From Myxococcaceae bacterium (GTDB lineage: Bacteria > Myxococcota_A > Polyangia > Polyangiales > Ga0077539), in NCBI GenBank assembly GCA_004297725.1, contig SCUS01000031.1, positions 9,550 through 73,549 on the forward strand: a stretch of 64,000 bases of DNA, read 5' to 3'. The position numbers were made by a program, and so were the translations under genes. How positions within the stretch are numbered: position 1 is the first letter of the stretch; every line of letters begins with the position of its first letter. The notes beneath the pieces were generated by a model that saw only the letters and a program-made list of their open reading frames with translations, ran no database searches and was not told the origin of the DNA. Below are positions 2,517 to 22,309 of the stretch, one piece after another.

Positions 2517-5500
2517 TCAGTCCTCGTCGTCCTCGTCGCCGTGCCGCGGGGTGACCAGCAGCTCGCCGTTGGGGCCGTCGCGGCGGATGATGAAGGTACG
2601 CCGCGCGGCCACGTCGTCGCCCTCGCGCGCCACCACCGAGACGATGTTGGCGCCCGGCCGCAGCGGGAGCGGCGCGTTGAAGGTCATCCGGTGGGGATCG
2701 GCCGCGTCGCGGTTGGACAGGTAGAAGACCTTGTGGGGCCCGACGAAGATGTAGAGGTCGAGGACGCGGTTCTCGTCCGTGGCCGTGCCCTGGAGGTTGA
2801 TGGACGCGCCGCGCGCCGAGAGCGCCACCGGACCGTCGGTCTCGATGAGCGGCGGCGAGTTGTGGAGCACGAAGGTGAGCGAGCGCGGGGCCGTCGAGCG
2901 GGCGCCGCCGCCCTGCGCCCGGAGCGCCCAGCCCGGCCGGCCGTCGAGCGCGTCGACCCGCACCCACTCGCCCGACTGCGCCGTGATCGGGAAGCCGGAG
3001 CCCGCCGGGGCGCGGAGGATCACCCTCGCGTCGCTGGCGGGTGACTCCCGCAGCTCGAGGGCGGCCGCGGCCACGAAGGTGCCGGTGGCGGCGGTGACGG
3101 GCGCGCCCGCCTGGGCGATGGGCACCCGGAGCTTCTGCGAGGTGACCTCGCGGAGGTCTTCGTCCTCGACGACGAGCTCGAGCTTGAGCTCGTCCTGGCG
3201 GAAGCTCTGGGCCACGTCGAAGGTGAACGCCACGCGGCGCTCCTCGCCGGGCATCATGTCGTTGATGTTGAAGCGCGCGTCGTGCAGCAGCACGCCGGTG
3301 CCCGACAGGTTCTTGAGGTTGGCGCGCGCCACGAAGGTGCGGCCGCGCCCGACGTTCTTCAGCGTCAGGAACATCGTCATCCGCTCGCCGCGCTGGATGC
3401 GCCCGTCGCCGTTGCCGCTGCCGCGCTGCTCGGCGAACTGCCAGCCGTAGGCGAAGACCGGGCGCTCGAGGCCACGGATGGAGGCCCGCAGCGGCGCGAC
3501 GGCCTCCGCGGGGGGGATGTGCCCGTGCGACTCCGACCACTCCAGCCGGATGCCGTCGGTGCGGGAGAGGGCCGCGCGCGGCACGAGGCACACCTTGCGG
3601 GTGCCGGGCGCCGGGAGCGAGCTGCTGCCCGGGCGGAAGCCCTCGAACTCGCAGAGCCCGAGCGGCGAGGTCCAGGTGCGGGTCTCGCCGGGGTTCACGC
3701 GGCCGAAGACGAACTCCCGGTTCTCGAACATCGGGTTGTCGCTCTTGGTGTTGGCGCGCAGCCGGAAGAGGGGCGCGGTGCCGCGGTTGGTGACCGTCAC
3801 CGTGAGGTCGAAGGCCTCCCCCGGCGCGGCGGTGTTCTCCGGCCGCGAGGTGCGCATGGTGACCTCGACGTTGGGCGTCCCGCCGGCGTCGGTGCCCTCC
3901 TCCCAGTCGACGTGCAGGGGCTGCAGCGCGCGGGCGACGCTGGCCACCTGCTCGGCGCGGGTGCGGTCGAGCAGCGGGCGCGCGTCGGCGATGAGCTCGC
4001 GGCGGCCGGAGCGCGGCGCGGCGGTGAGCAGGTCGCGCACGAAGCGGATGGAGAAGTCCTCGCGGAAGCCGTCGTCGGCGACGTCGTCGGCGCCGCGCAG
4101 CCGGAGCTGCTCGCGCTCCTCCGCGGGGAAGTAGTACCGGACGGTCTCCGCGGGGTGGTCGCCGTTGTGGGCGCGGTTGTTGGTGAGGTGCGCCGAGAGG
4201 TCGGACTCGCGCGGGAAGAGCTTGTCCGCGTCGAGGTCCATGTCGAGCGGGTCGACGGTCATCGGCATGAGCTCGATGTCCGGCGTGATGCCGACGCCCT
4301 GGATGGAGACGTCGCCCGGGGTGAGGTACTGCGCGATGGTGATCTTGAGCGCGCCGCCGTCGGGCAGGTTGCGGATCGTCTGCACGCTCCCCTTGCCGAA
4401 GGAGGTGCCGCCCACGATGACCGCGCGGTTGTGGTTCTTGAGGGCGCCGGCGACGATCTCGCTGGCGCTGGCCGAGCCGCCGTCGATGAGCACGGCGAGG
4501 GGGTAGTCGGGCTCCGTGCCGGGGCCCTCGGCGCCGCGCTCCTCGCGCTCCTCGCGCCGGTTGCCCGCGGTCACGACGATGGCGCCGTCCTGGAGGAAGA
4601 GGTCGGCCACGGCCACGGCCTGCTCCAGCAGGCCGCCGGGGTTGCCGCGCATGTCGAGGACGAGCGAGCGCATGCCCTGCTCGCGCATCTGCCGCAGGGC
4701 GCGGGTGAGCTCATCGCCGGTGGTCTCGCTGAAGCTCTTGATGCGAGCGTACCCGACGCCGTTGGCCATCAGCCGGTGGTCGACGGAGCGCACGGTGATC
4801 TGCGCGCGCACGAGGTCGAAGCGACGGGGCTGGGCCCAGCCGCCGGCGCCCGCGCGGGTGACCCAGATGGTGACCGGGGTGCGCTCCGGGCCGCGGAGGC
4901 GGTTGACCGCCTCGGAGAGCGACATGTTGGTGGTGCTCTCCTCGTTGATCTTCACGATGCGGTCGTAGCGGTGCAGGCCCGCGCGCGCCGCGGGGGTCTC
5001 GGGCATGGGGTTCATCACCGTGAGCAGCCCGTCGCGGATGGAGATCACGATGCCGAGCCCGCCGAAGTGGCCGCCGGTCTGGATCTGCATCTCGTGAAAC
5101 TGCTCGGGGGTGAGCACCACCGAGTGGGGATCGAGGGTGCGGAGCATCCCGTTGGCGGCGATGTACTCCACGTCCTGGAGGTTGACGTCGGTGCCGCGCA
5201 GGTGGGTCTGGAGGAAGGTGAAGATCTCGCGCCAGCGGGCCTCGAGGTCCCACGGCGCGTTGACGCCCGCGAGGTCGAAGGTCTGCTCGTGGGTGTCGAC
5301 CCGCACGGTGAGCGTGGGGGCGTTGTCCTCGTGGAGCACCAGCACCTGGGCGACGCTGCGCTGGATGGCGTCGAGGCCCTTCAGCAGCATCTCTCGCGGG
5401 TGCACGCGCCCCGGGTCGACGTAGTTGTTGTTGATCTCCAGCAGCACGTGCCGGAGCACGCTCATGCGCGCCAGGTCGAAGTTGGGGTCGCGGGCGCGCT

Positions 5501-5642
5501 CACGCCGGGGCTGGGCGAGCAGGGCGCGGGAGCCGCCGAGGCCCAGCAGGCCACCGTGGCGGGTGACCGTGATGACCGAGGCGAGGGCGCAGGCGACGAG
5601 CAGCAGGGCTGCCTTCCAGGGACGGTTCCAGCTAGGGCGCAT
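2517..5642 (-). CDS. S41 family C-terminal processing peptidase with PDZ domain and a long C-terminal extension
   Basis: PDZ-like segment GGLGIVISIRDG...YDRIVKINEEST. S41 motifs LVLDMRGNPGGLL and GGSASASEIVAGALKNHNRAVIVGGTSFGKGSVQ. The ATG at 5642 precedes a signal/TM segment (WKAALLLVACALA); the track ORF starts at a GTG at 5678. Confidence 0.9.
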   Translation of the reverse strand: MRPSWNRPWKAALLLVACALASVITVTRHGGLLGLGGSRALLAQPRRERARDPNFDLARMSVLRHVLLEINNNYVDPGRVHPREMLLKGLDAIQRSVAQVLVLHEDNAPTLTVRVDTHEQTFDLAGVNAPWDLEARWREIFTFLQTHLRGTDVNLQDVEYIAANGMLRTLDPHSVVLTPEQFHEMQIQTGGHFGGLGIVISIRDGLLTVMNPMPETPAARAGLHRYDRIVKINEESTTNMSLSEAVNRLRGPERTPVTIWVTRAGAGGWAQPRRFDLVRAQITVRSVDHRLMANGVGYARIKSFSETTGDELTRALRQMREQGMRSLVLDMRGNPGGLLEQAVAVADLFLQDGAIVVTAGNRREEREERGAEGPGTEPDYPLAVLIDGGSASASEIVAGALKNHNRAVIVGGTSFGKGSVQTIRNLPDGGALKITIAQYLTPGDVSIQGVGITPDIELMPMTVDPLDMDLDADKLFPRESDLSAHLTNNRAHNGDHPAETVRYYFPAEEREQLRLRGADDVADDGFREDFSIRFVRDLLTAAPRSGRRELIADARPLLDRTRAEQVASVARALQPLHVDWEEGTDAGGTPNVEVTMRTSRPENTAAPGEAFDLTVTVTNRGTAPLFRLRANTKSDNPMFENREFVFGRVNPGETRTWTSPLGLCEFEGFRPGSSSLPAPGTRKVCLVPRAALSRTDGIRLEWSESHGHIPPAEAVAPLRASIRGLERPVFAYGWQFAEQRGSGNGDGRIQRGERMTMFLTLKNVGRGRTFVARANLKNLSGTGVLLHDARFNINDMMPGEERRVAFTFDVAQSFRQDELKLELVVEDEDLREVTSQKLRVPIAQAGAPVTAATGTFVAAAALELRESPASDARVILRAPAGSGFPITAQSGEWVRVDALDGRPGWALRAQGGGARSTAPRSLTFVLHNSPPLIETDGPVALSARGASINLQGTATDENRVLDLYIFVGPHKVFYLSNRDAADPHRMTFNAPLPLRPGANIVSVVAREGDDVAARRTFIIRRDGPNGELLVTPRHGDEDDED

Positions 5643-5737
5643 CGCGGCGGAGTATAGGGTGAAGCGTCGGGGTTGCACCCGTAACCCGCCAGATTGCCGC
5701 GCGGCCTGGGCGGCGGAGGGGGAAGGGCGAAGTGGGC

Positions 5738-10425: not shown

Positions 10426-11943
10426 TCAACGGCGCGGCGGCGGCGGCAACCGGCGACGCCTCCGAGGGGACGCGACGATCAGGCCCAGCGCCGTCAGCAG
10501 GGCCCCGGCGCCCGCACCGGGCGTCGCGCCCGTCGCGACGCGGCAGTCGCAGCCGTCGCGCGGAGCGGCGGGAGCCGGACCGGCGTCGACGACGGAAGCG
10601 TCGCGCCCGGCGTCCAGCGAGGGGGCGTCGATCGAGGGCGCATCGAGGCCTCGAAGCACGTCGGGGGCGTCGGCCTGGCCGAGGTCGCCCGGCGTCGCGG
10701 GGACATCGACCCGGCCGCCCGCGTCGAGGGACACCTCCGCCGCGTCCTCGACCGCGTCGACGGCGCCCGCGTCATGGAACACCGGGTCGCGCGGAGCGCT
10801 CGCGTCGATGCTCCGGAGCGGCGCGGACACCGTCGGCCAGATGGAACCGCAGGTCGACCCCACGGGGGTGTCGCCGCCGCACGCTGCGGAGGGGCCGGCG
10901 AGCCGCCGGAGCGAGAGCAGCGGGTCGATGTGGTCGCCGCCGTCGCGCGAGCAGCCGAGCGCATAGCCGTCGGTCACCTCGTCGGCGCACACGAAGAGCA
11001 GCCCGGCGTGATAGCGGAGGCACTGCACCCCGACGTCGCCGCCGACGCGGGTCCAGGGGCCGCCGCGCACCGAGCGCAGGATGCCCTCCGCGCGGCTGGT
11101 GCTCGCGATCCACACGGTGTCGCCGTCGTCGGAGAGCGCGAAGCCCACCATCTCCGCGCGGGTCTCCCCGATGCGGCGGAGGGTCATCCCGCCGTCCTCG
11201 CTCTTGAGGAGCATCGTCCCGAGGCCCCGGGAGGCGCGCACGTACAGCACATCCGGCCGCCTCGCATCGACCCCCGCGAGGTAGATCCCCTGCGCGTCGA
11301 AGAAGTCGCGCGTGGTCTCGCGCACCGTGCGCCCGCCGTCGTCGCTGCGCAGCAGCACCGGGAGCCCGCCTCGCGCGTAGGCCGTCACGTAGACCCGCAT
11401 CGGATCGTTGGGCGCCACGTCCGCGGTCTCGGAGAAGTACCCCATGAGCCTCGCGCCGGTGGTCCAGCTCCTGCCGCCGTCGGAGGACAGCACCAGCGCG
11501 TCGTCGCCGGTGGGCCCGCCCAGCGCGACCATCGTGCGCCCGTCGAAGGTGTTGGTGACGTCGGCGTATCCCCTCATGGGAGCGCCCGCCGGCCGGGACC
11601 ATCGACAGTACGCCCCGTCGCTCACCGAGAGGCCGGCGAAGGTCGCGATCACCAGCGCGCCGTCCTGGCCGATGGAGAGCGACGGGTCGTTGGCGCCGAC
11701 GGCCTCGTAGGACTCCTCGCAGACCCACCCCCACTGGCGGCCGCCGTCGCGAGACAGCACCAGCCCGAAGGTGGTGCGCAGCGCCAGCACGTCGTTGCGC
11801 GCGCCCGGCCCTGCCACGAAGTAGTTCGCCGCGGGAAAGCGCCCGTTGGCCTGCGCCTCGCCCGCGACCGCCAGCCCGATCGCCAGCGCGCCGCCCCACA
11901 TCGCCGCCCGCGCTCCGCGCCGGGCCATCGCTCGTCTTGCCAT
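10426..11943 (-). CDS. BNR/Asp-box repeat protein with a MYXO-CTERM-type C-terminal sorting tail
   Basis: Asp-boxes SRDGGRQW, SSDGGRSW, RSDDGGRT, KSEDGGMT. The C-terminus DGCDCRVATG...ALLTALGLIVASPRRRRR has a Cys motif, a TM segment and an Arg cluster. The start is uncertain (Met20 or Met25 of the track ORF). Confidence 0.8.
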   Translation of the reverse strand: MARRAMARRGARAAMWGGALAIGLAVAGEAQANGRFPAANYFVAGPGARNDVLALRTTFGLVLSRDGGRQWGWVCEESYEAVGANDPSLSIGQDGALVIATFAGLSVSDGAYCRWSRPAGAPMRGYADVTNTFDGRTMVALGGPTGDDALVLSSDGGRSWTTGARLMGYFSETADVAPNDPMRVYVTAYARGGLPVLLRSDDGGRTVRETTRDFFDAQGIYLAGVDARRPDVLYVRASRGLGTMLLKSEDGGMTLRRIGETRAEMVGFALSDDGDTVWIASTSRAEGILRSVRGGPWTRVGGDVGVQCLRYHAGLLFVCADEVTDGYALGCSRDGGDHIDPLLSLRRLAGPSAACGGDTPVGSTCGSIWPTVSAPLRSIDASAPRDPVFHDAGAVDAVEDAAEVSLDAGGRVDVPATPGDLGQADAPDVLRGLDAPSIDAPSLDAGRDASVVDAGPAPAAPRDGCDCRVATGATPGAGAGALLTALGLIVASPRRRRRLPPPPRR

Positions 11944-12071
11944 TAGGTCTCTCGCGCCGATCCTGCCACGATTCGCCCCCGCGACGGCGTCGCGCGTCAC
12001 TGCGCTGCCCGCGTCGCACTGGACCTTCCCGGCACGACTGAGGCAACCTCCCGCTCGGAGAGCCCCTCGCC

Positions 12072-15000
12072 ATGCGTACCCTTCTGCTTCGTTCCGCTGC
12101 GCTCATGGCGCTGGCGATGAGTGTGTCCGCCTGTGCAGGCGGCCAGGTCGCCGAGATGGACGCGATGACCCCGGACGACTCGACCTTCGTCGACGACTTC
12201 GTCAAGGACCTCGACGGCCCGAACCCCGACTCGCCCCCGGAGCCGGGGCGCTGCGGCCAGGCCAGCCAGCGCTGCTGCGGCGGCACCGCGTGCGAGCGAG
12301 GGCTCGACTGCCGCGAGGGCGCGTGCTGTTCGCTGCCCGCCGCGACGTGCACCGGGGCGGGCGAGTGCTGCGACGGGATGCAGTGCGCGATGGGCCGCTG
12401 CTGTCACGCCATGGGCGACCGCTGCGACAGCAGCGCCGACTGCTGCGAGGGCACCACCTGCAGCGGCGGCACGTGCATGCCCACGGCCGCGTCGTGCGGC
12501 GCGATGGCCCAGCCCTGCTGCGCCAGCGACGTCTGCCAGGCGGGCTTCGCCTGCAACGCCGGGACGTGCGCGGCCTGCGGCGGCGCCGGTCAGGCGTGCT
12601 GCTCGGGCGCGACCTGCACGGGGACGCTGGCGTGCGTGGCGGACACCTGCCAGATGCCCGCGGCGTGCGGCGATCGGCTACAGCCGTGCTGCAGCGGCAG
12701 CTCGTGCAACGCCGGGCTCACCTGCGACGGCGGCGGGGTCTGCAACCCGGCCCCCGCGGCGTGCGGTGGCGACGGCCAGATGTGCTGCGGAACGGCCTGC
12801 AACCCGGGCCTGGCGTGCAACGCCGGCACCTGCGGCGCCGCGTCGGGGATGACCCCGTGCGGCAACAACGGCGAGGCGTGCTGCGGCGGTACGGCCTGCA
12901 ACAGCGGGCTCATCTGCACCAGCGCGCGCTGCGCGATGCCGACCGGCGGGGGCGGCGGGGCGTGCGGCGCCAGCGGCGAGACGTGCTGCGGCGGTACGGC
13001 ATGCAACAGCGGGCTCTCGTGCATCGGCGGGAGCTGCTCGGCCTCGATGCCCGGCGGCGGCGGCGGCATGACGCCCGGCGGCGGCGGCACCCCGGGGGCC
13101 TGCGGCGCCATCGGTCAGGCGTGCTGCGGCTCGGCGGCCTGCAACCTCGGCGCGGTCTGCTCGGGCGGAACCTGCGAGGCGGCCCCCACCCCGGGCAGCG
13201 ACGCCGGGGTCGGTCCTGGCGTCGACGGCGGCGGCGCGCCGGGGGCGTGCGGCGGTGACAGCGAGACGTGCTGCGGCGGGACGGCCTGCAACAGCGGCCT
13301 CACCTGCACCTCGGGCACCTGCCAGCCCGGCATGGGGATGATGGCCTGCGGCGGCGACGGCCAGGCGTGCTGCGGCACCGCGGCGTGCGACCCGGGCTTC
13401 ACCTGCAACACCATGACGCGGCGCTGCGCGGCGAGCACCACGCCGGTCTGCGGCGGCGACGGCCAGCGCTGCTGCGCCATGGACCGCTGCACCAACCCGT
13501 CGCTCTCCTGCGTCGGCGGCACCTGCCGCAGCTGCGGCTCGGCGGGCTCGGCCTGCTCGTCCGCCGGCGACTGCTGCTCCGGCCTGGCCTGCTCGGGCTC
13601 GGCCTGCACCGACGGGACGATGCCGCTGCCTCCGGGCTCGGCCTGCACCCCGGGCTCGATGCCCGCGTGCGCGACCGGCACCACCTGCTCCGACTCTCAC
13701 GGCTCCGACCGCTGCTGCCGCGCCGAGTCGGGCCGGTGCAGCGTCGACACCGACTGCTGCGGCGAGCTCTCGTGCCGCTCGGGCACCTGCCAGCGCAACG
13801 CCGCGGGCGGCGGCTGCAGCCGCGACTCGGACTGCACCTCGGGCAACACCTGCCAGAGCGGCCAGTGCCGCCCGATGGCCGAGGCGTGCCGGATGGCGGG
13901 CGCGTCGTGCATGACCGGCGGGCCGCGCTGCTGCGGGGCCCTGAGCTGCAACGGCACCGGCACCTCGGGCCGTTGCTGCAGCGCCGCGGGCTCGGCGTGC
14001 ACGGGCTCGGGCGACTGCTGCAACGGCCTCTCGTGCACCGGCGGCACCTGCGCCTGCTCGCCCGCGGGCCAGCGCTGCACCGCGAGCGCGGACTGCTGCG
14101 GCAGCGCGACCTGCGTGGGCGGCATGTGCCAGTGCCGCGCCCGGGGCCAGAGCTGCGCGGCCGACGGCGACTGCTGCACCGGGATGACCTGCAACAGCGG
14201 GGTGTGCTCGATGTGCGCCACGCCGGGCTCGACCTGCACCCCCGGCAGCGGGGCGGCGTGCTGCTCGCCCTCGCAGTGCCGCTCGGAGATCACCTCGACC
14301 TTCTGCTGCGTGCAGCAGAACGAGGGGTGCACCCGGGACATCGACTGCTGCGGTCACATGCTCTGCGAGAGCGGCCGCTGCGCCTGCCGCGTGGAGGGCC
14401 GCGGCTGCCGGGAGAACAACGAGTGCTGCTCGGGCCTGAGCTGCCAGAGCAACGTCTGCCGCCGCGCGCCCATGGACGGCGGCACCGGCTCGGACGGCGG
14501 CGGCACCGGCTTCGACATCCCGCGCATCGACGGCGCGGCGGGCGACGCCCGGGTCGACGGCGCCACCGGCGACGGCGGGATGTGCATCGCCGCGGGGCGC
14601 GTCTGCGTCCAGGGTTCGACGGCCTGCTGCGGCGACTACTCTTGCGGCGCGCAGCCGGGCGGAACCTTCTGCTGCCGCCCGGCGATGGGCGCCTGCACCA
14701 CCTCGCGCGAGTGCTGCGGCTCGATGCTCTGCACCAACGGCGCGTGCGTGTGCCGTCGCCGGGAGGAGTCCTGCTCGGCGAACCTCGACTGCTGCGGCGG
14801 GGCCCGCTGCAACCTGCCCGACGGAGGCACCGTCGGCACCTGCGCGTGCAGCCAGGCCTCGGAGAGCTGCACCTCCAACGAGGGCTGCTGCTCAGGCCTC
14901 ACCTGCCGCAACGGGCGGTGCCTCGCGATGGGCTGCCTCGCCCCGGGCGAGCGCTGCGACAACACCGACGCCGGATCCTGCTGCGGCGGCTACGCGTGCA

Positions 15001-15323
15001 ACGTGCAACCGAGCGGGCAGAGCACCTGCTCGCGCGGCCCCGCGCTGGTGACGACCGACCCGCCGACGACCTGCATGACCGGCGCGGAGTGCGCTGGTAG
15101 CGTGCTGTGCACGGGCGGTGTCTGCGTCTGCCGCCGCGGCGGCGAGTCGTGCTTCTACTCCAACGACTGCTGCGGAGCGATGCTCTGCATCCGCCCGGGC
15201 GGCGGGTCGACGGGCATGGGCACCTGCCAGTGCCAGGCCAGCGGCAACGGCTGCCGCATCAACGGCAACGACTGCTGCTCGGGGGCGTGCCGCTCGACCC
15301 CGACCGGCGATCGCTGCCCCTGA
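12072..15323 (+). CDS. giant cysteine-rich repeat lipoprotein (about 27 six-Cys modules)
   Basis: Signal peptide with lipobox AMSVSAC|AGG. Tandem modules of the form CG..G..CC....C..G..C....C and C......C.....CC....C....C run the full length. All antisense ORFs are Ala/Arg/Gly junk. Confidence 0.85.
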   Translation: MRTLLLRSAALMALAMSVSACAGGQVAEMDAMTPDDSTFVDDFVKDLDGPNPDSPPEPGRCGQASQRCCGGTACERGLDCREGACCSLPAATCTGAGECCDGMQCAMGRCCHAMGDRCDSSADCCEGTTCSGGTCMPTAASCGAMAQPCCASDVCQAGFACNAGTCAACGGAGQACCSGATCTGTLACVADTCQMPAACGDRLQPCCSGSSCNAGLTCDGGGVCNPAPAACGGDGQMCCGTACNPGLACNAGTCGAASGMTPCGNNGEACCGGTACNSGLICTSARCAMPTGGGGGACGASGETCCGGTACNSGLSCIGGSCSASMPGGGGGMTPGGGGTPGACGAIGQACCGSAACNLGAVCSGGTCEAAPTPGSDAGVGPGVDGGGAPGACGGDSETCCGGTACNSGLTCTSGTCQPGMGMMACGGDGQACCGTAACDPGFTCNTMTRRCAASTTPVCGGDGQRCCAMDRCTNPSLSCVGGTCRSCGSAGSACSSAGDCCSGLACSGSACTDGTMPLPPGSACTPGSMPACATGTTCSDSHGSDRCCRAESGRCSVDTDCCGELSCRSGTCQRNAAGGGCSRDSDCTSGNTCQSGQCRPMAEACRMAGASCMTGGPRCCGALSCNGTGTSGRCCSAAGSACTGSGDCCNGLSCTGGTCACSPAGQRCTASADCCGSATCVGGMCQCRARGQSCAADGDCCTGMTCNSGVCSMCATPGSTCTPGSGAACCSPSQCRSEITSTFCCVQQNEGCTRDIDCCGHMLCESGRCACRVEGRGCRENNECCSGLSCQSNVCRRAPMDGGTGSDGGGTGFDIPRIDGAAGDARVDGATGDGGMCIAAGRVCVQGSTACCGDYSCGAQPGGTFCCRPAMGACTTSRECCGSMLCTNGACVCRRREESCSANLDCCGGARCNLPDGGTVGTCACSQASESCTSNEGCCSGLTCRNGRCLAMGCLAPGERCDNTDAGSCCGGYACNVQPSGQSTCSRGPALVTTDPPTTCMTGAECAGSVLCTGGVCVCRRGGESCFYSNDCCGAMLCIRPGGGSTGMGTCQCQASGNGCRINGNDCCSGACRSTPTGDRCP

Positions 15324-15391: not shown

Positions 15392-15982
15392 ATGAACGCC
15401 CCCAGCCGCTATCTCGTCGCCATCGTCATCGCCAGCAACCTGATGGGCTGTCAGCTCATCAAGAAGTTCACCGATCGCAACAACGACTCGGGCGCTGCGC
15501 CGACGGGCACCACCGTGGTGACGCTCGACGGCGGCGGCATCGCGCTGCCCAACCCCAACGTCGTCGCGTACGACGCCGCGGCCTGGGCCGACGCGGGCGC
15601 CGCAGCCAACGCGGCGATGGCGGCGGCCAACGCGGCGATGGCGGCCGCGGCCGACGCCTCGGCGCAGGCCGGCCAGGCGCTGCAGAACGCGCAGAACACC
15701 CTGGGCGACGCCGGGGTCAACACGGCCGCGGCCGCTCCCGGCGCGGCGGAGGCCGACGCGGGCGCGGCGATGGCGGCCCCCCCGGGTGTGGCCCCGACGG
15801 CCCCGGTGGTCGCCGCTCCGTCGTCGCCCGCCGCTGCCGAGCCCGCCGAGGAGCCCGAGCAGGCCGGGCGCCGCCCGTCGCGTCGGCACGACGACTACTG
15901 CCGCCGGCACCCCGGGCAGCTGCACCCGCGAACGGGCCAGATCTGCCCGAACATCCTCGGGTCGCAGAACCTCCAGCGCTGA
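15392..15982 (+). CDS. Ala-rich lipoprotein
   Basis: MNAPSRYLVAIVIASNLMGC|Q lipobox. Low-complexity Ala-rich middle with an AANAAMAAANAAMAAA repeat and a Cys-containing C-terminus. Confidence 0.6.
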   Translation: MNAPSRYLVAIVIASNLMGCQLIKKFTDRNNDSGAAPTGTTVVTLDGGGIALPNPNVVAYDAAAWADAGAAANAAMAAANAAMAAAADASAQAGQALQNAQNTLGDAGVNTAAAAPGAAEADAGAAMAAPPGVAPTAPVVAAPSSPAAAEPAEEPEQAGRRPSRRHDDYCRRHPGQLHPRTGQICPNILGSQNLQR

Positions 15983-17034: not shown

Positions 17035-18501
17035 TTAGTGCGGGAAGACGCCCTTGACGTAGAGGCCGACGCCCACCCCGACCAGCAGCAGCGCGGCCAC
17101 GACCGCCAGCAGCGCCGCCGGGAACTTCTTCCCCTCCGTCGCCGCCTGGGGAGGCTGGCCGAGGGGGGCGTACGACTGGCTTCTCACCAGCGAGGTGGGC
17201 TGCGGGGGCTTCGGCGTGGGGGGGCGATCGGAGACGGGCGCGTCCGGTGCGTCGCCCTCGAGCTCGTCGGCGAGGTTGCCCGGCGGCGTGGAGACGGCGG
17301 CCGAGACGCCGTCCAGGGGAGACTCCCAGGCGATGCCCGTGCGGCTCGGGCGGCCGTCGTCCAGGAGGTCGCTGGCCCACTCGCCGACGTTCTCGAAGTC
17401 CCCGGCGTCGAGCGGCCGAGCGCCCTCGGCGTTGGGGTTGGAGCCCGCGGTGCCGGTCTTCGCGGCGGGCGACGGGCTGTGCGGGTCGTCGAGGGAGGTG
17501 AAGCGCAGCAGCTCTTCCTGGATGAGCTGGTCGATGACCGAGCCGTCCTTGCGGGTGAGCGTGGCGGCGCCCTTGCGCTCGGCGACGGCCTCGTTGACGA
17601 CGCGCGCCAGGTCCTGCGCGCCGACGCGCATCTTGTTGCCGAAGATGAAGTTGAGCAGCTCGTCGCTGAAGGCGGCGGCGTCGGCGTAGCGGACGCGCTT
17701 GTCCTTCGCGAGGGCCACCGCGAGGATGTTCTCCAGTTCCTCGGGCACCGCGGGGTTGATGGACCGCAGCGACGGCACCACGGCCTGCTGCACCATCTTC
17801 ACGGTCTGGTAGTCGGTCTCGCCCTGGAAGAGCTTCCGCCCGGCGAGCATCTCCCAGAGCATGATCCCGACGGCGAAGATGTCGGCCTGGGCGTCGGCCT
17901 CCTGGCCCATGGCCGTCTCCGGGGCGAGGTAGCTGAACTTCCCCTTCACCACCCCGGGCTCGGTCTTCTCGACGGAGTGCGCGGCCTTGGCGAGGCCGAA
18001 GTCCACGATCTTCACCTCGCCCTGCCGGGAGATCAGCACGTTGGGGGGCGAGATGTCCCGGTGGACGATGTGCAGGTCTTGATTGTCCGAGTCGTGCAGG
18101 TGGTGCGCGTACTGGAGCCCCTCGCAGACCTTGATGGCGATGTGGCAGGCGAGGGCCATCGGGAAGGCCTGGCGCTTGTTGCGGAGGTTCTCGATGAGGT
18201 GCTTGAGGTTCACCCCGTCGATGAACTCCATCACGATGAAGTAGGTGTTCTCGACGCGGCCGATGTCGAACACCTGCACGATGTTGGCGTGCGAGAGCCT
18301 CGCGCTCAGCCGGGCCTCGTCGAGGAACATCCGGATGAACTTCTCGTTCGACGCCAGGTGCGGCAGGACGCGCTTGATGGCGACCTGCTTCTTGAAGCCC
18401 GCGACGCTGGTGGCCTCGCCCCGGAACACCTCCGCCATGCCGCCGGACTCGAGGCGTTCGGTGACTCGATAGCTGCTCTGCGCCCGTGCTTCGGAGGCCA
18501 T
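17035..18501 (-). CDS. Hanks-type Ser/Thr protein kinase with a C-terminal TM anchor
   Basis: GGMAEVFRG...AIKRV (Gly loop and Lys), HRDISPPNVLI, DFGLAKA, APE. C-terminal hydrophobic segment AALLAVVAALLLVGVGVGLYV. The ATG at 18501 is preferred over the TTG at 18543. Confidence 0.9.
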   Translation of the reverse strand: MASEARAQSSYRVTERLESGGMAEVFRGEATSVAGFKKQVAIKRVLPHLASNEKFIRMFLDEARLSARLSHANIVQVFDIGRVENTYFIVMEFIDGVNLKHLIENLRNKRQAFPMALACHIAIKVCEGLQYAHHLHDSDNQDLHIVHRDISPPNVLISRQGEVKIVDFGLAKAAHSVEKTEPGVVKGKFSYLAPETAMGQEADAQADIFAVGIMLWEMLAGRKLFQGETDYQTVKMVQQAVVPSLRSINPAVPEELENILAVALAKDKRVRYADAAAFSDELLNFIFGNKMRVGAQDLARVVNEAVAERKGAATLTRKDGSVIDQLIQEELLRFTSLDDPHSPSPAAKTGTAGSNPNAEGARPLDAGDFENVGEWASDLLDDGRPSRTGIAWESPLDGVSAAVSTPPGNLADELEGDAPDAPVSDRPPTPKPPQPTSLVRSQSYAPLGQPPQAATEGKKFPAALLAVVAALLLVGVGVGLYVKGVFPH

Positions 18502-18562
18502 GGAAGGGGTTTGGACTCGATCCTTGGAGAGGGGGGCAACCAATGGTTCTAGGGGTTGTGCA

Positions 18563-21241
<2,679 letters not shown>

Positions 21242-21409: not shown

Positions 21410-22309
21410 ATGTCGAACGAAGACGCGCGTAAGCTGTTTGTGGCCGGTTTGCCTGACAGCGTGACGGAGGAGGATCTGCGCGGCCTCTTCCTCGAGTCGG
21501 GAGCACAGTCTGCGGAGCTCACGCTGCCCCGCGATCGGATGTCGGGGCGCCCGCGTGGGTTCGCCTTCGTCCGGCTGGGTAGCGAAGAGGAGGCCGATCG
21601 TGCCCGCTCGGTGCTCGACGGTCGCATCGTCGATGGCCGCACCATCTCGGTGCGTCCCTTCCAGGCCGAGCCCCCGGCGCGCGGCGAGCGTCCGATGGGC
21701 GCCGGCATGGGCGCCCCGATGGGCGGTGGCTACGGGGCTCCTCGGGAAGATCGCCCGCGGCGCGAGATGGCCGGTGGTCCGGCGCCTGACCGCACGCTCT
21801 ACGTGGGCAACCTCCCGTACGACGCGACGCAGGAGGAGATCGAGGTGCTGCTCAACGAACTCGGGGCCGGCCCCGTGGCGCGAGTGCACCTGCCCCTCGA
21901 CCAGGACGGCCGCAAGCGCGGCTTCGGCTTCGTGACGCTCGCGACCGCCGAGGCCGCCAACGCCGCCATCGACCAGCTCAAGAACGCCGAGCTCCGCAGC
22001 CGTCGGCTGATCATCAACCTGGCGCACCCGAAGGGCACCCCCGGGGCCCCGATGGGCGCCGGCGGCCCTGGCGGCTTCACCGGCACGGGCGGCGATCGTC
22101 CGCCCCCGCGCACCTTCGGCGGCGCGCCGGGCAGCAACTTCGGTCCTCCGTCGCCTCCTGGCGGCCGCGTGGGCCTCGCCAACCAGCGCAAGCGCAAGGA
22201 GGGCGAAGGCGACGGCCGCGGCCGTCCGGGTGCCGCGGGCGCGACGGCGGGCGCGAGCGGTCGGCGTGACCGCGAGGAGAAGAGCTGGCGCGACGACGAC
22301 GAAGACTGA
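21410..22309 (+). CDS. RNA-binding protein with two RRM domains and a Gly/Pro-rich tail
   Basis: RNP2/RNP1 pairs KLFVAGL...RGFAFVRL and TLYVGNL...RGFGFVTL. The C-terminal part is Gly/Pro/Arg-rich and ends with an acidic WRDDDED. Confidence 0.85.
   Translation: MSNEDARKLFVAGLPDSVTEEDLRGLFLESGAQSAELTLPRDRMSGRPRGFAFVRLGSEEEADRARSVLDGRIVDGRTISVRPFQAEPPARGERPMGAGMGAPMGGGYGAPREDRPRREMAGGPAPDRTLYVGNLPYDATQEEIEVLLNELGAGPVARVHLPLDQDGRKRGFGFVTLATAEAANAAIDQLKNAELRSRRLIINLAHPKGTPGAPMGAGGPGGFTGTGGDRPPPRTFGGAPGSNFGPPSPPGGRVGLANQRKRKEGEGDGRGRPGAAGATAGASGRRDREEKSWRDDDED

Follow-up and report, generated by a model that had tools for sequence, protein, structure and literature searches.

A predicted myxobacterial lipoprotein of 32 knottin-like modules that shares a three-module cassette with lytic enzymes

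The window analyzed in this study is a stretch of 64,000 nucleotides from contig SCUS01000031.1 of a Myxococcaceae bacterium (assembly GCA_004297725.1). At positions 12072..15323 of its forward strand lies an uninterrupted open reading frame (ORF) of 1083 codons, the product of which is a cysteine-rich protein of 1083 amino acids composed of tandem modules. The ORF was confirmed as a true coding gene: the GC content at third codon positions (GC3) was 0.96 in the forward frame, there were zero internal stops, and the synonymous codon choice agreed with that of the confident genes in the window. The GC contents at first and second codon positions (GC1/GC2) were 0.57/0.75, which resembles the antisense "shadow" frame of high-GC genomes and prompted the consideration of an antisense gene. 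This alternative was ruled out by eight stops in the GC3-synchronous antisense frame, and the odd values are explained by a composition rich in Cys (TGC), Gly, Ala, Ser, and Thr. Cysteine accounted for 187 residues (17.3%), and 184 of the 187 codons were TGC. Since the modules share 60-79% identity in DNA, they are old duplications, and recent slippage or an assembly artefact was rejected. An exact match to the protein was sought in a public protein collection and none was found. A scan for promoters and terminators also found none, and says little at 75% GC.

A lipoprotein of tandem six-Cys mini-modules had been proposed from the letters alone (hereafter the sequence-only reading), and this was confirmed by the ORF, the lipobox, and hidden Markov models (HMMs) of the modules. 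The counts given there were too low. When delimited by HMMs built from clear copies, the modules numbered 32 (29 with six Cys and three with four) rather than about 27, and the Cys numbered 187 (the lipobox Cys and 186 in modules) rather than about 160. The modules comprise 829 residues, and the lipobox Cys is the only Cys of the mature protein outside them. They included type A (C-x6-CC-x4-C-x5-C-x4-C, 11 copies), canonical type B (C-x6-C-x5-CC-x4-C-x4-C, 14 copies), a B' form that keeps the B framework with a last loop of 8-9 residues (4 copies), and four-Cys modules that consist of the core only (3 copies). In 2000 composition-preserving shuffles of the protein, the six-Cys frameworks were matched with a mean of 0.008 and a maximum of one, as opposed to 11 matches for A and 18 for B in the actual sequence.

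The modules are arranged as a head (A1-B1-B2-A2-A3), an array of A4-A11, the module B3, and five cassettes of the B'-B-B form (Table 1). The junctions in these cassettes are CC or single residues, and some extra B modules accompany them. The second module type had been placed in the C-terminal half, which does not hold, as two B modules lie at residues 86-135. Many adjoining B modules are joined without a linker (CC junctions) or with one residue between them. Together the linkers amount to 232 residues, in which Gly, Ala, Pro, Asp, Thr, and Met are frequent, with Met at 17 of the 232 residues. Met-Pro and Met-Thr-Pro motifs recur among them (MPTAAS, QMPAA, AMPTGG, SASMPGG, GMTPGG, and TMPLPP). 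Lys was found once in 1062 mature residues, compared to 1.4% in the other genes of the window.

Table 1. Features of the cysteine-rich gene, with positions in the window and residues (aa) of the protein.
Feature	Position	Strand	Basis
Signal peptide and lipobox VSAC (residues 18-21); Cys21 is the predicted lipidated N-terminus	12072..12134	+	Sequence, orthologue conservation
Acidic Pro/Asp-rich tether, 39 residues (aa 22-60), no Cys	12135..12251	+	Sequence
Head of five modules, A1-B1-B2-A2-A3 (aa 61-193)	12252..12650	+	Collinear in 19 aligned orthologues
Type-A array, A4-A11 (aa 199-485), with Gly/Pro/Ala/Met-rich linkers of 2-24 residues	12666..13526	+	HMM delimitation
Module B3 (aa 488-512), hybrid: A-like CG..G start, B-type Cys pattern	13533..13607	+	
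Cassette 0 (aa 525-599): four-Cys B', B, four-Cys B	13644..13868	+	Modules and orthologue alignment
Cassette 1 (B', CC junction, B, one residue, B) and extra B (aa 606-712)	13887..14207	+	
Cassette 2 (B'-B-B, aa 715-796); end of the shared orthologue architecture	14214..14459	+	
Gly/Asp-rich linker, 41 residues (aa 797-837)	14460..14582	+	
Cassette 3 (B'-B-B) and extra B (aa 838-950), in the clade-specific C-terminal extension	14583..14921	+	
Cassette 4 (B', linker, four-Cys B, B) and extra B (aa 955-1082)	14934..15317	+	
Stop codon	15321-15323	+	

The gene product is a lipoprotein, with lipidation as predicted from its N-terminus, which reads MRTLLLRSAALMALAMSVSA followed by the lipobox Cys, and VSAC agrees with the lipobox pattern [LVI][ASTVI][GAS]C. 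The lipobox Cys was present in almost all full-length orthologues checked, and the start of the mature protein, C-A-G-G-Q-V-A, was identical across six close orthologues, among which small indels fall in the acidic tether that follows. According to the sorting rules of Myxococcus xanthus, Lys at position +2 leads to inner-membrane retention and Ala at position +7 is a signal for export to the matrix (PMC3222651). The +2 residue is Ala and not Lys, and hence no inner-membrane retention is expected by this rule (PMC3222651). If extended, the 32 modules and the 232 linker residues would span several periplasm widths by rough estimate, which favours a location at the surface or in the matrix.

Types A and B are one scaffold that differs only in the placement of the sixth Cys, as indicated by in-register Cys, shared Gly and hydrophobic positions, and hybrid modules. 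Both types are 25 residues long and have Cys at positions 0, 7, 13, 19, and 24 in common, with the sixth at position 8 in type A and at position 14 in type B. The conserved positions include G4 (60% in A, 56% in B), G16 (60% and 47%), L/M17 (59% and 62%), and G22 (74% and 81%). A profile-profile alignment (hhalign) placed the two types in register with a probability of 91.7% and E = 7.8e-7. Additionally, hybrids were found in which an A-type "CG..G[QE]" start is combined with the B-type Cys pattern, such as module B3, and a B-like module occupies the A2 position in one orthologue.

The sequence-only reading had assigned the Cys framework of the inhibitor cystine knot (ICK) to the modules. This stood for type B, where Pfam, a profile search of the PDB, and a fold search agreed with it, and failed for type A: the ICK-type order C-C-CC-C-C occurs in 18 modules (B and B'), and not in type A (C-CC-C-C-C) or in the four-Cys modules. 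The comparison of single modules and pieces with knottin and Dickkopf families, which had been suggested along with it, placed type B above the cut-offs of Toxin_12 and Dickkopf_N. For Toxin_12 (PF07740, cut-off 21), a three-module B piece scored 33.7 bits, pieces of 3-4 modules ranged from 26.8 to 33.7, and a single B module scored 22.7. For Dickkopf_N (PF04706, cut-off 25), the three-module piece scored 33.4 bits, passing only when summed over modules, and the match covered positions 25-51 only, so that the full ten-Cys domain of 51 positions was not matched. Weaker conotoxin matches were also found in Pfam for B pieces. Type-A pieces had no match in Pfam or NCBIfam. Scans of the whole protein against Pfam and NCBIfam returned no match, including none to a catalytic or recognisable ligand-binding domain; the absence of a whole-protein Pfam match is probably due to bias filtering. 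NCBIfam is assumed to hold the TraA-type and Myxococcus cysteine-rich repeats (TIGR04201 and TIGR02232), and neither the whole protein (E <= 10) nor four module pieces (E <= 1) matched any of its models, in agreement with the earlier impression that the modules differ from the Myxococcus repeat.

Searches against structures led in the same direction. The type-B profile had about 60 matches in the PDB, nearly all of them to spider ICK toxins, plus DKK4 (best E = 2e-4), and C1-C5 of type B aligned column for column with the ICK toxins. The type-A profile had marginal matches only, of which Jingzhaotoxin-3 (E 0.01) aligned in a shifted register. Structure prediction of a few modules, a check proposed at the outset, gave confident AlphaFold2 (AF2) models that fit knottins most closely. 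The head (aa 55-198, 19 orthologues) was modelled with a mean predicted local distance difference test score (pLDDT) of 86.6, and a model of the A modules only (A2-A3) reached a pLDDT of 87.0; a beta-hairpin ends every module in both. In Foldseek, the best local fit of the head model was hanatoxin, with a template modelling score (TMt) of 0.73 and a root-mean-square deviation (rmsd) of 0.8 A, and further local fits included SGTx1, conotoxin GXIA, EETI-II, Dkk4, Draxin, and the double-knot toxin. The A-only model matched knottins only, and did so more loosely (TMt about 0.6, rmsd 2.2-2.7 A). Both types therefore resemble knottins in their predicted fold (TMt 0.6-0.74).

Disulfide pairing was inferred from cysteines lost together in relatives. 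In module B2, C1 and C4 (Cys111/Cys125) were both present in 12 of 19 orthologues and both absent in the other seven, with no case of a single loss (Fisher p = 2e-5, uncorrected for phylogeny). Indel-free sequence windows from 166 relatives contained 295 full B modules and 142 full A modules, together with 271 four-Cys cores in which precisely positions 0 and 14 (or 0 and 8) were missing. Double losses of other kinds in these relatives were rare or long-loop variants, and joint losses of positions 7 and 19 (C2/C5) were rare events. All three four-Cys modules of the window protein lack C1 and C4, including the two in cassette 0. The loss of C1 and C4 as a pair supports their pairing in type B, and the data indirectly support the pairs 0-14, 7-19, and 13-24 (C1-C4, C2-C5, C3-C6), which is the ICK pattern. 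For type A, positions 0 and 8 were lost in P0034 and, as a shared loss, in P0001, P0002, and P0004, and positions 7 and 19 were lost in P0003. These losses suggest C1-C3, C2-C5, and C4-C6, a hairpin core with a local staple, which by definition is no knot. When degenerate modules with the A signature were searched for under stricter terms, there were too few cases for connectivity. The shifted-register alignment with Jingzhaotoxin-3 offers 0-13 and 8-24 as a possible alternative for type A. Once the protein has been exported by Sec, all 186 module Cys would be expected to form disulfides within their own modules.

When 1.84 billion cluster representatives were searched exhaustively with a profile, 19 were identified at E <= 1e-30, 125 at E <= 1e-10, and 843 at E <= 1e-3. 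The usual full-length form is 550-630 amino acids long, shares the head, and has three cassettes; a cultured relative, Sandaracinus, encodes the roughly 600-residue form at locus L075. Among species-representative genomes, a scan found 319 confirmed relatives, and among the best 79 of these loci all that carry a taxon name below class belong to Myxococcota, mostly to metagenome-assembled genomes (MAGs) of Polyangiales and Sandaracinaceae from lakes, groundwater, and wastewater. The loci L005-L010 derive from lakes and wastewater plants. A few distant proteins with the modules occur in other phyla, such as Chloroflexota. The family appears largely confined to Myxococcota.

Full-length orthologues of 1073-1093 amino acids were found in five species-level MAGs at 77-90% identity, and two further orthologues at about 62%. 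In a six-way alignment, all 187 Cys columns were invariant, as were 57-75% of the other columns, and indels fell almost wholly in linkers, with the 41-residue Gly/Asp-rich linker as a hotspot. Two copies (L009 and L011) in the long-read MAG JADJAE, which share about 89-90% identity with the window gene and are each broken by frameshifts, were left out as probable long-read assembly errors. The breaks are probably homopolymer errors, and the two copies may represent strain heterogeneity and not true pseudogenes. The gene is under purifying selection, with a ratio of nonsynonymous to synonymous substitution rates (dN/dS) of 0.19-0.33 for the whole protein. The lowest class was formed by all 11 type-A modules (0.09-0.22), followed by the type-B modules (0.19-0.40) and the linkers (0.27-0.43), and module A1 was 100% invariant among the six close orthologues.

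A difference in module number between strains, which the sequence-only reading had raised, was found between clades (about 17-18 versus 32) and was absent within the close clade, where the number is constant. The extra modules of the long form are additional A modules and two extra C-terminal cassettes, and most of A4-A11 is missing from the orthologues of roughly 600 amino acids. Partial synteny with the locus L004 favours orthology of the long form with the roughly 600-residue form of Sandaracinaceae over the alternative that the two are paralogues. The MAGs JBGARZ (L010/L026/L046) and CANJUR (L007/L027/L049) encode the long form plus shorter Cys-rich paralogues, with matches spanning roughly 290-540 amino acids.

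The C-terminal part of the family profile was also found as one collinear stretch of 130-250 residues on the C-termini of otherwise unrelated proteins. By Pfam, the N-terminal parts of these proteins are Peptidase_M23 with an Ig-like domain (P0043, P0061, P0052, P0111, P0116, and P0166), a GH25 muramidase (P0047), a VanY-type D-Ala-D-Ala carboxypeptidase (P0118), and an M4 thermolysin (P0127 and P0141). Trypsin-like (P0054) and C25 (P0156) peptidases bear modules as well. In BLASTP, the window protein shared 30-40% identity with the enzyme tails over 120-230 residues, with the best match to P0061 (39.6% over 164 amino acids, E = 1e-19), and its cassette 1 region aligned to the C-termini of the M23, GH25, M4, and VanY enzymes. 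The tails are the same B'-CC-B-x-B cassette as in the window protein, with a signature of "D-CC-G-x-M" in module 2 (G 94%, M 78%) and of R1 (47%) and G4 (78%) in module 3, and a lipobox is present in most of the cassette-bearing enzymes. The fused enzymes differ in catalytic mechanism, are all extracellular, and mostly act on peptidoglycan.

Other architectures were observed among the relatives. In P0013 (JGI, 1685 amino acids), about 15 type-A-like modules end an Rhs/Tc-toxin-like protein (SpvB, TcdB_toxin_midN, FG-GAP), so that a module array is joined to a toxin-delivery protein. In P0014 (ENA metagenome, 701 amino acids), type-B modules follow an N-terminus that looks like a class III signal of the archaeal or type IV pilin-like kind (MAKNGQAATELIIILGVALVVVVLFFVL...), which raises the possibility that the module is also present outside Bacteria or on pilin-like proteins.

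A cassette found on mechanistically different extracellular enzymes is most simply read as a targeting or binding appendage. By extension, and short of calling it probable, the window protein is tentatively interpreted as an enzyme-free multivalent binding or adhesion array on the surface or in the matrix; the adhesin or matrix role had been suggested before and is plausible, with some indirect support from the cassette held in common with lytic enzymes. The protein would be an exported, lipid-anchored string of 32 disulfide-locked beta-hairpin modules of the ICK or disulfide-directed beta-hairpin (DDH) kind, without a catalytic domain, in which five cassettes and eleven A modules are carried on a lipid tether. 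Its N-terminal lipid would tether it to the outer membrane, or else the protein would be released into the matrix, and in its extended form it would reach well beyond the periplasm. The cassettes, and probably the A modules too, would bind the same target as the cassettes of the M23, GH25, VanY, and M4 enzymes, for which a cell-envelope polymer, from prey bacteria or from the matrix of the producer itself, is the most plausible candidate. Such a protein could act as a protease-resistant multivalent adhesin or anchor that draws its strength from many weak binding sites.

Several observations weigh against this interpretation. The +7 Ala that hints at sorting to the matrix was found in the close clade only, and the rule itself was established in another class of Myxococcota (PMC3222651). 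The Foldseek E-values are not significant (best 0.23), as single modules are too short, and the pairing proposed for type A is drawn from very few independent events. The neighbourhood analysis found no partner gene that is conserved across the family. With an isoelectric point of 4.55 and scarce aromatics (0 Trp, 3 Tyr, 8 Phe), the protein differs from most carbohydrate-binding modules and also from basic cell-wall-binding domains. Moreover, the C-terminal cassettes of the enzymes could serve in secretion, folding, or stability instead of binding.

The same architecture could also be explained by a structural coat or spacer with a passive role. Such an extended, protease-resistant string of beads would shield or space the surface of the cell or the matrix without a specific ligand, and would be similar to the Cys-rich repeat region of the TraA receptor but with nothing at its tip. 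Modules of the knottin type have high stability, conservation across the paralogous modules is confined to scaffold residues, and no catalytic or recognisable ligand-binding domain was found in the protein; TraA itself is a myxobacterial surface protein with Cys-rich repeats (PMC3325183). However, the non-Cys residues of the type-A modules are conserved beyond the needs of a spacer (dN/dS 0.09-0.22, with A1 100% invariant), and the cassette has position-specific non-scaffold residues in common with the enzyme tails. As a spacer without a tip also has no obvious role, a coat of this kind appears unlikely, if still worth keeping in view. The fold matches brought up a multi-headed protease inhibitor as well, as they included the squash inhibitors EETI-II and MCTI-A at a TMt of about 0.7. 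Such an inhibitor, with each module blocking a protease in the way of squash trypsin inhibitors, would guard the surface from own or foreign secreted proteases; myxobacteria secrete many proteases, and M4, trypsin-like, and C25 peptidases carry related modules. Yet knottins all superpose about equally, which makes the fold match uninformative on function, loop 1 conserves Gly at position 4 but no P1-type residue, and the same cassette is attached to a glycosidase (GH25), M23, and VanY, enzymes of unrelated mechanisms. An inhibitor is accordingly considered improbable.

Conservation of the three-module cassettes as units, including their attachment to enzymes, bears on the earlier suggestion of a polyprotein precursor that is cut between modules to release small knotted toxin or signal peptides. 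Eukaryotic knottins and cyclotides sometimes derive from multi-domain precursors, and flexible linkers part the type-A modules here. Many B modules, however, are joined directly (CC) or by one residue, the linkers vary in length and sequence and contain no conserved or dibasic cleavage motifs, and a lipid anchor would be an odd start for a secreted peptide precursor. The linker-less junctions, the lack of processing sites, and the cassette-level conservation contradict that suggestion, which is now highly improbable. Metal binding through free thiols or thiolates, in the manner of metallothioneins, might be considered for a protein with 17% Cys and somewhat Met-rich linkers (17/232), but the export signal directs it into an oxidising compartment. 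Its 186 module Cys are even in number and all fit a constant framework of six or four Cys in which Gly and hydrophobic scaffold positions are conserved, the Cys are lost in pairs, the models are confident and knottin-like, and the C-x-C and C-x-x-C clusters typical of metallothioneins are absent, so that this function is extremely improbable. Little credence is given to a more elaborate scheme, in which the array would be a scaffold beyond its adhesin role and B'-B-B would be a homotypic docking module through which the lipoprotein gathers M23, GH25, VanY, and M4 enzymes into a surface-bound, loosely cellulosome-like lytic complex for predation. With equally little credence, and separately from that scheme, the family would be the first natural series in which a four-Cys hairpin core, a true ICK, and an alternative third disulfide interconvert at orthologous positions, with bearing on the origin of the knottin fold.

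To our knowledge, knottins are known almost entirely as free peptides of animals, plants, and fungi. The closest sequence likeness of type B is to the ICK toxins of Toxin_12 (hanatoxin, SGTx1, and Aca toxin 1), which have the same C-x6-C-x5-CC-x4-C-x4..C framework and with which the predicted module backbone superposes at about 1 A. The 'CC-x-G-[LM]-x-C' of the modules also resembles the 'CC-x-x-L-x-C' of gating-modifier toxins, as read from the PDB-profile alignments. In contrast to these free, secreted animal peptides of 30-40 residues, the window protein is bacterial and lipid-anchored, with 32 concatenated and often linker-less modules whose last loop has only four residues. Homology and convergence cannot be separated on so short a motif. 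The Dickkopf N-terminal domain (PF04706), after which the relatives P0016 and P0018 are named at NCBI, is a further likeness, and Dkk4's N-terminal region appeared in both fold searches (head and A-only models). One window module corresponds to half a Dickkopf domain, and the likeness implies no relation to Wnt/LRP biology.

The DDH reportedly follows the pattern C-x5-19-C-x2-[GP]-x2-C-x6-19-C with 1-3 and 2-4 pairing, a consensus attributed to Wang et al. 2000 and Smith et al. 2011. Its first three spacings and the Gly are matched by the four-Cys core, C-x5-C-x2-G-x2-C-x4-C, which differs in a last loop of four residues as opposed to six or more in that consensus. Unlike the free toxins, the forms in the window are tandem modules of a bacterial protein, and orthologous positions toggle between four-Cys and six-Cys forms. 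The DDH, a concept that also comes up in PMC4942781 and PMC11891777, has been proposed as the two-disulfide ancestor of the ICK. Tandem, independently folded knottin domains that act multivalently are represented by secreted cysteine-rich repeat proteins (SCREPs) such as the double-knot toxin DkTx, which was found in both fold searches and differs from the window protein in having two modules versus 32 and no lipid anchor. By its exported, tandem disulfide-rich domains, the window protein falls within the SCREP definition, and 69.5% of prokaryotic SCREPs in ScrepYard hold unrecognised domains (PMC9885460). The TraA (TIGR04201) and Myxococcus (TIGR02232) repeats are likewise tandem Cys-rich repeats of myxobacterial surface proteins, and disulfide bonding is assumed for those of the TraA type (PMC3325183). 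Three Cys are invariant in the TraA repeat, which lies between a PA14 domain and a MYXO-CTERM tag, whereas the window protein has no head domain and carries an N-terminal lipobox instead.

Among accessory targeting domains, SH3b of lysostaphin-type M23 enzymes, LysM, and CBM1 hold the same C-terminal place as the cassette, and no sequence relation of the modules to them was found with Pfam pieces or the type-A PDB profile. CBM1 is a small DDH-type disulfide module that is linked flexibly to enzymes, and it differs in a flat aromatic face that is absent in the window protein. Type A had been tried as a fungal CBM1-like module ('CGG.G' start, C-x2-G-x2-C) and was rejected, with no profile match and no aromatic face. 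A literature search found no description of a bacterial knottin-repeat protein. The fold class is known, the type-A framework and the three-module cassette of lytic enzymes are undescribed, and the copy number is unusually large.

The family presents the knottin scaffold as a stackable bacterial building block, with at least 843 cluster representatives and 32 copies in one lipoprotein, and in predatory myxobacteria it also places cassettes of three modules on enzymes that degrade cell walls. Should the cassette be a targeting domain, it would represent a cell-envelope-binding module of a new class, with potential use in directing lytic enzymes. With its toggling between four and six Cys and an extra bridge in two alternative places, the family would also provide a natural experiment on the proposed origin of the knot from a two-disulfide hairpin through the addition of a third bridge.

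Around the cysteine-rich gene, synteny is limited to the close clade, and one Sandaracinaceae MAG also has a nearby kinase and M1 peptidase. The divergent upstream gene (10426-12000, reverse strand, 524 amino acids) adjoins the cysteine-rich gene in all close orthologue loci; its product has a weak F510_1955 glycosylhydrolase match (39.8 bits versus a cut-off of 175) and a borderline MYXO-CTERM sorting tag (19.8 bits versus a cut-off of 20), in support of a myxobacterial origin. A small Ala-rich predicted lipoprotein of 196 amino acids (...IASNLMGC...) without a family match is encoded 68 nucleotides downstream on the same strand (15392-15982, forward strand), and this gene may be co-transcribed with the cysteine-rich gene. 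Its place is taken by proC (P5CR) in the loci of the roughly 600-residue orthologues. Large secreted-type peptidases flank the locus at 2517-5678 (reverse strand) and 18500-21241 (forward strand), the first an S41 peptidase that carries PDZ and SH3 domains and the second an M1 aminopeptidase that carries HEAT repeats, and their positions are conserved in the close clade only. Farther downstream, a gene at 21410-22309 (forward strand) encodes a protein of 299 amino acids that contains two RNA recognition motifs of the eukaryote type (RRM_1, E 2.3e-31), and it is kept at the same position in the loci L005 and L010.

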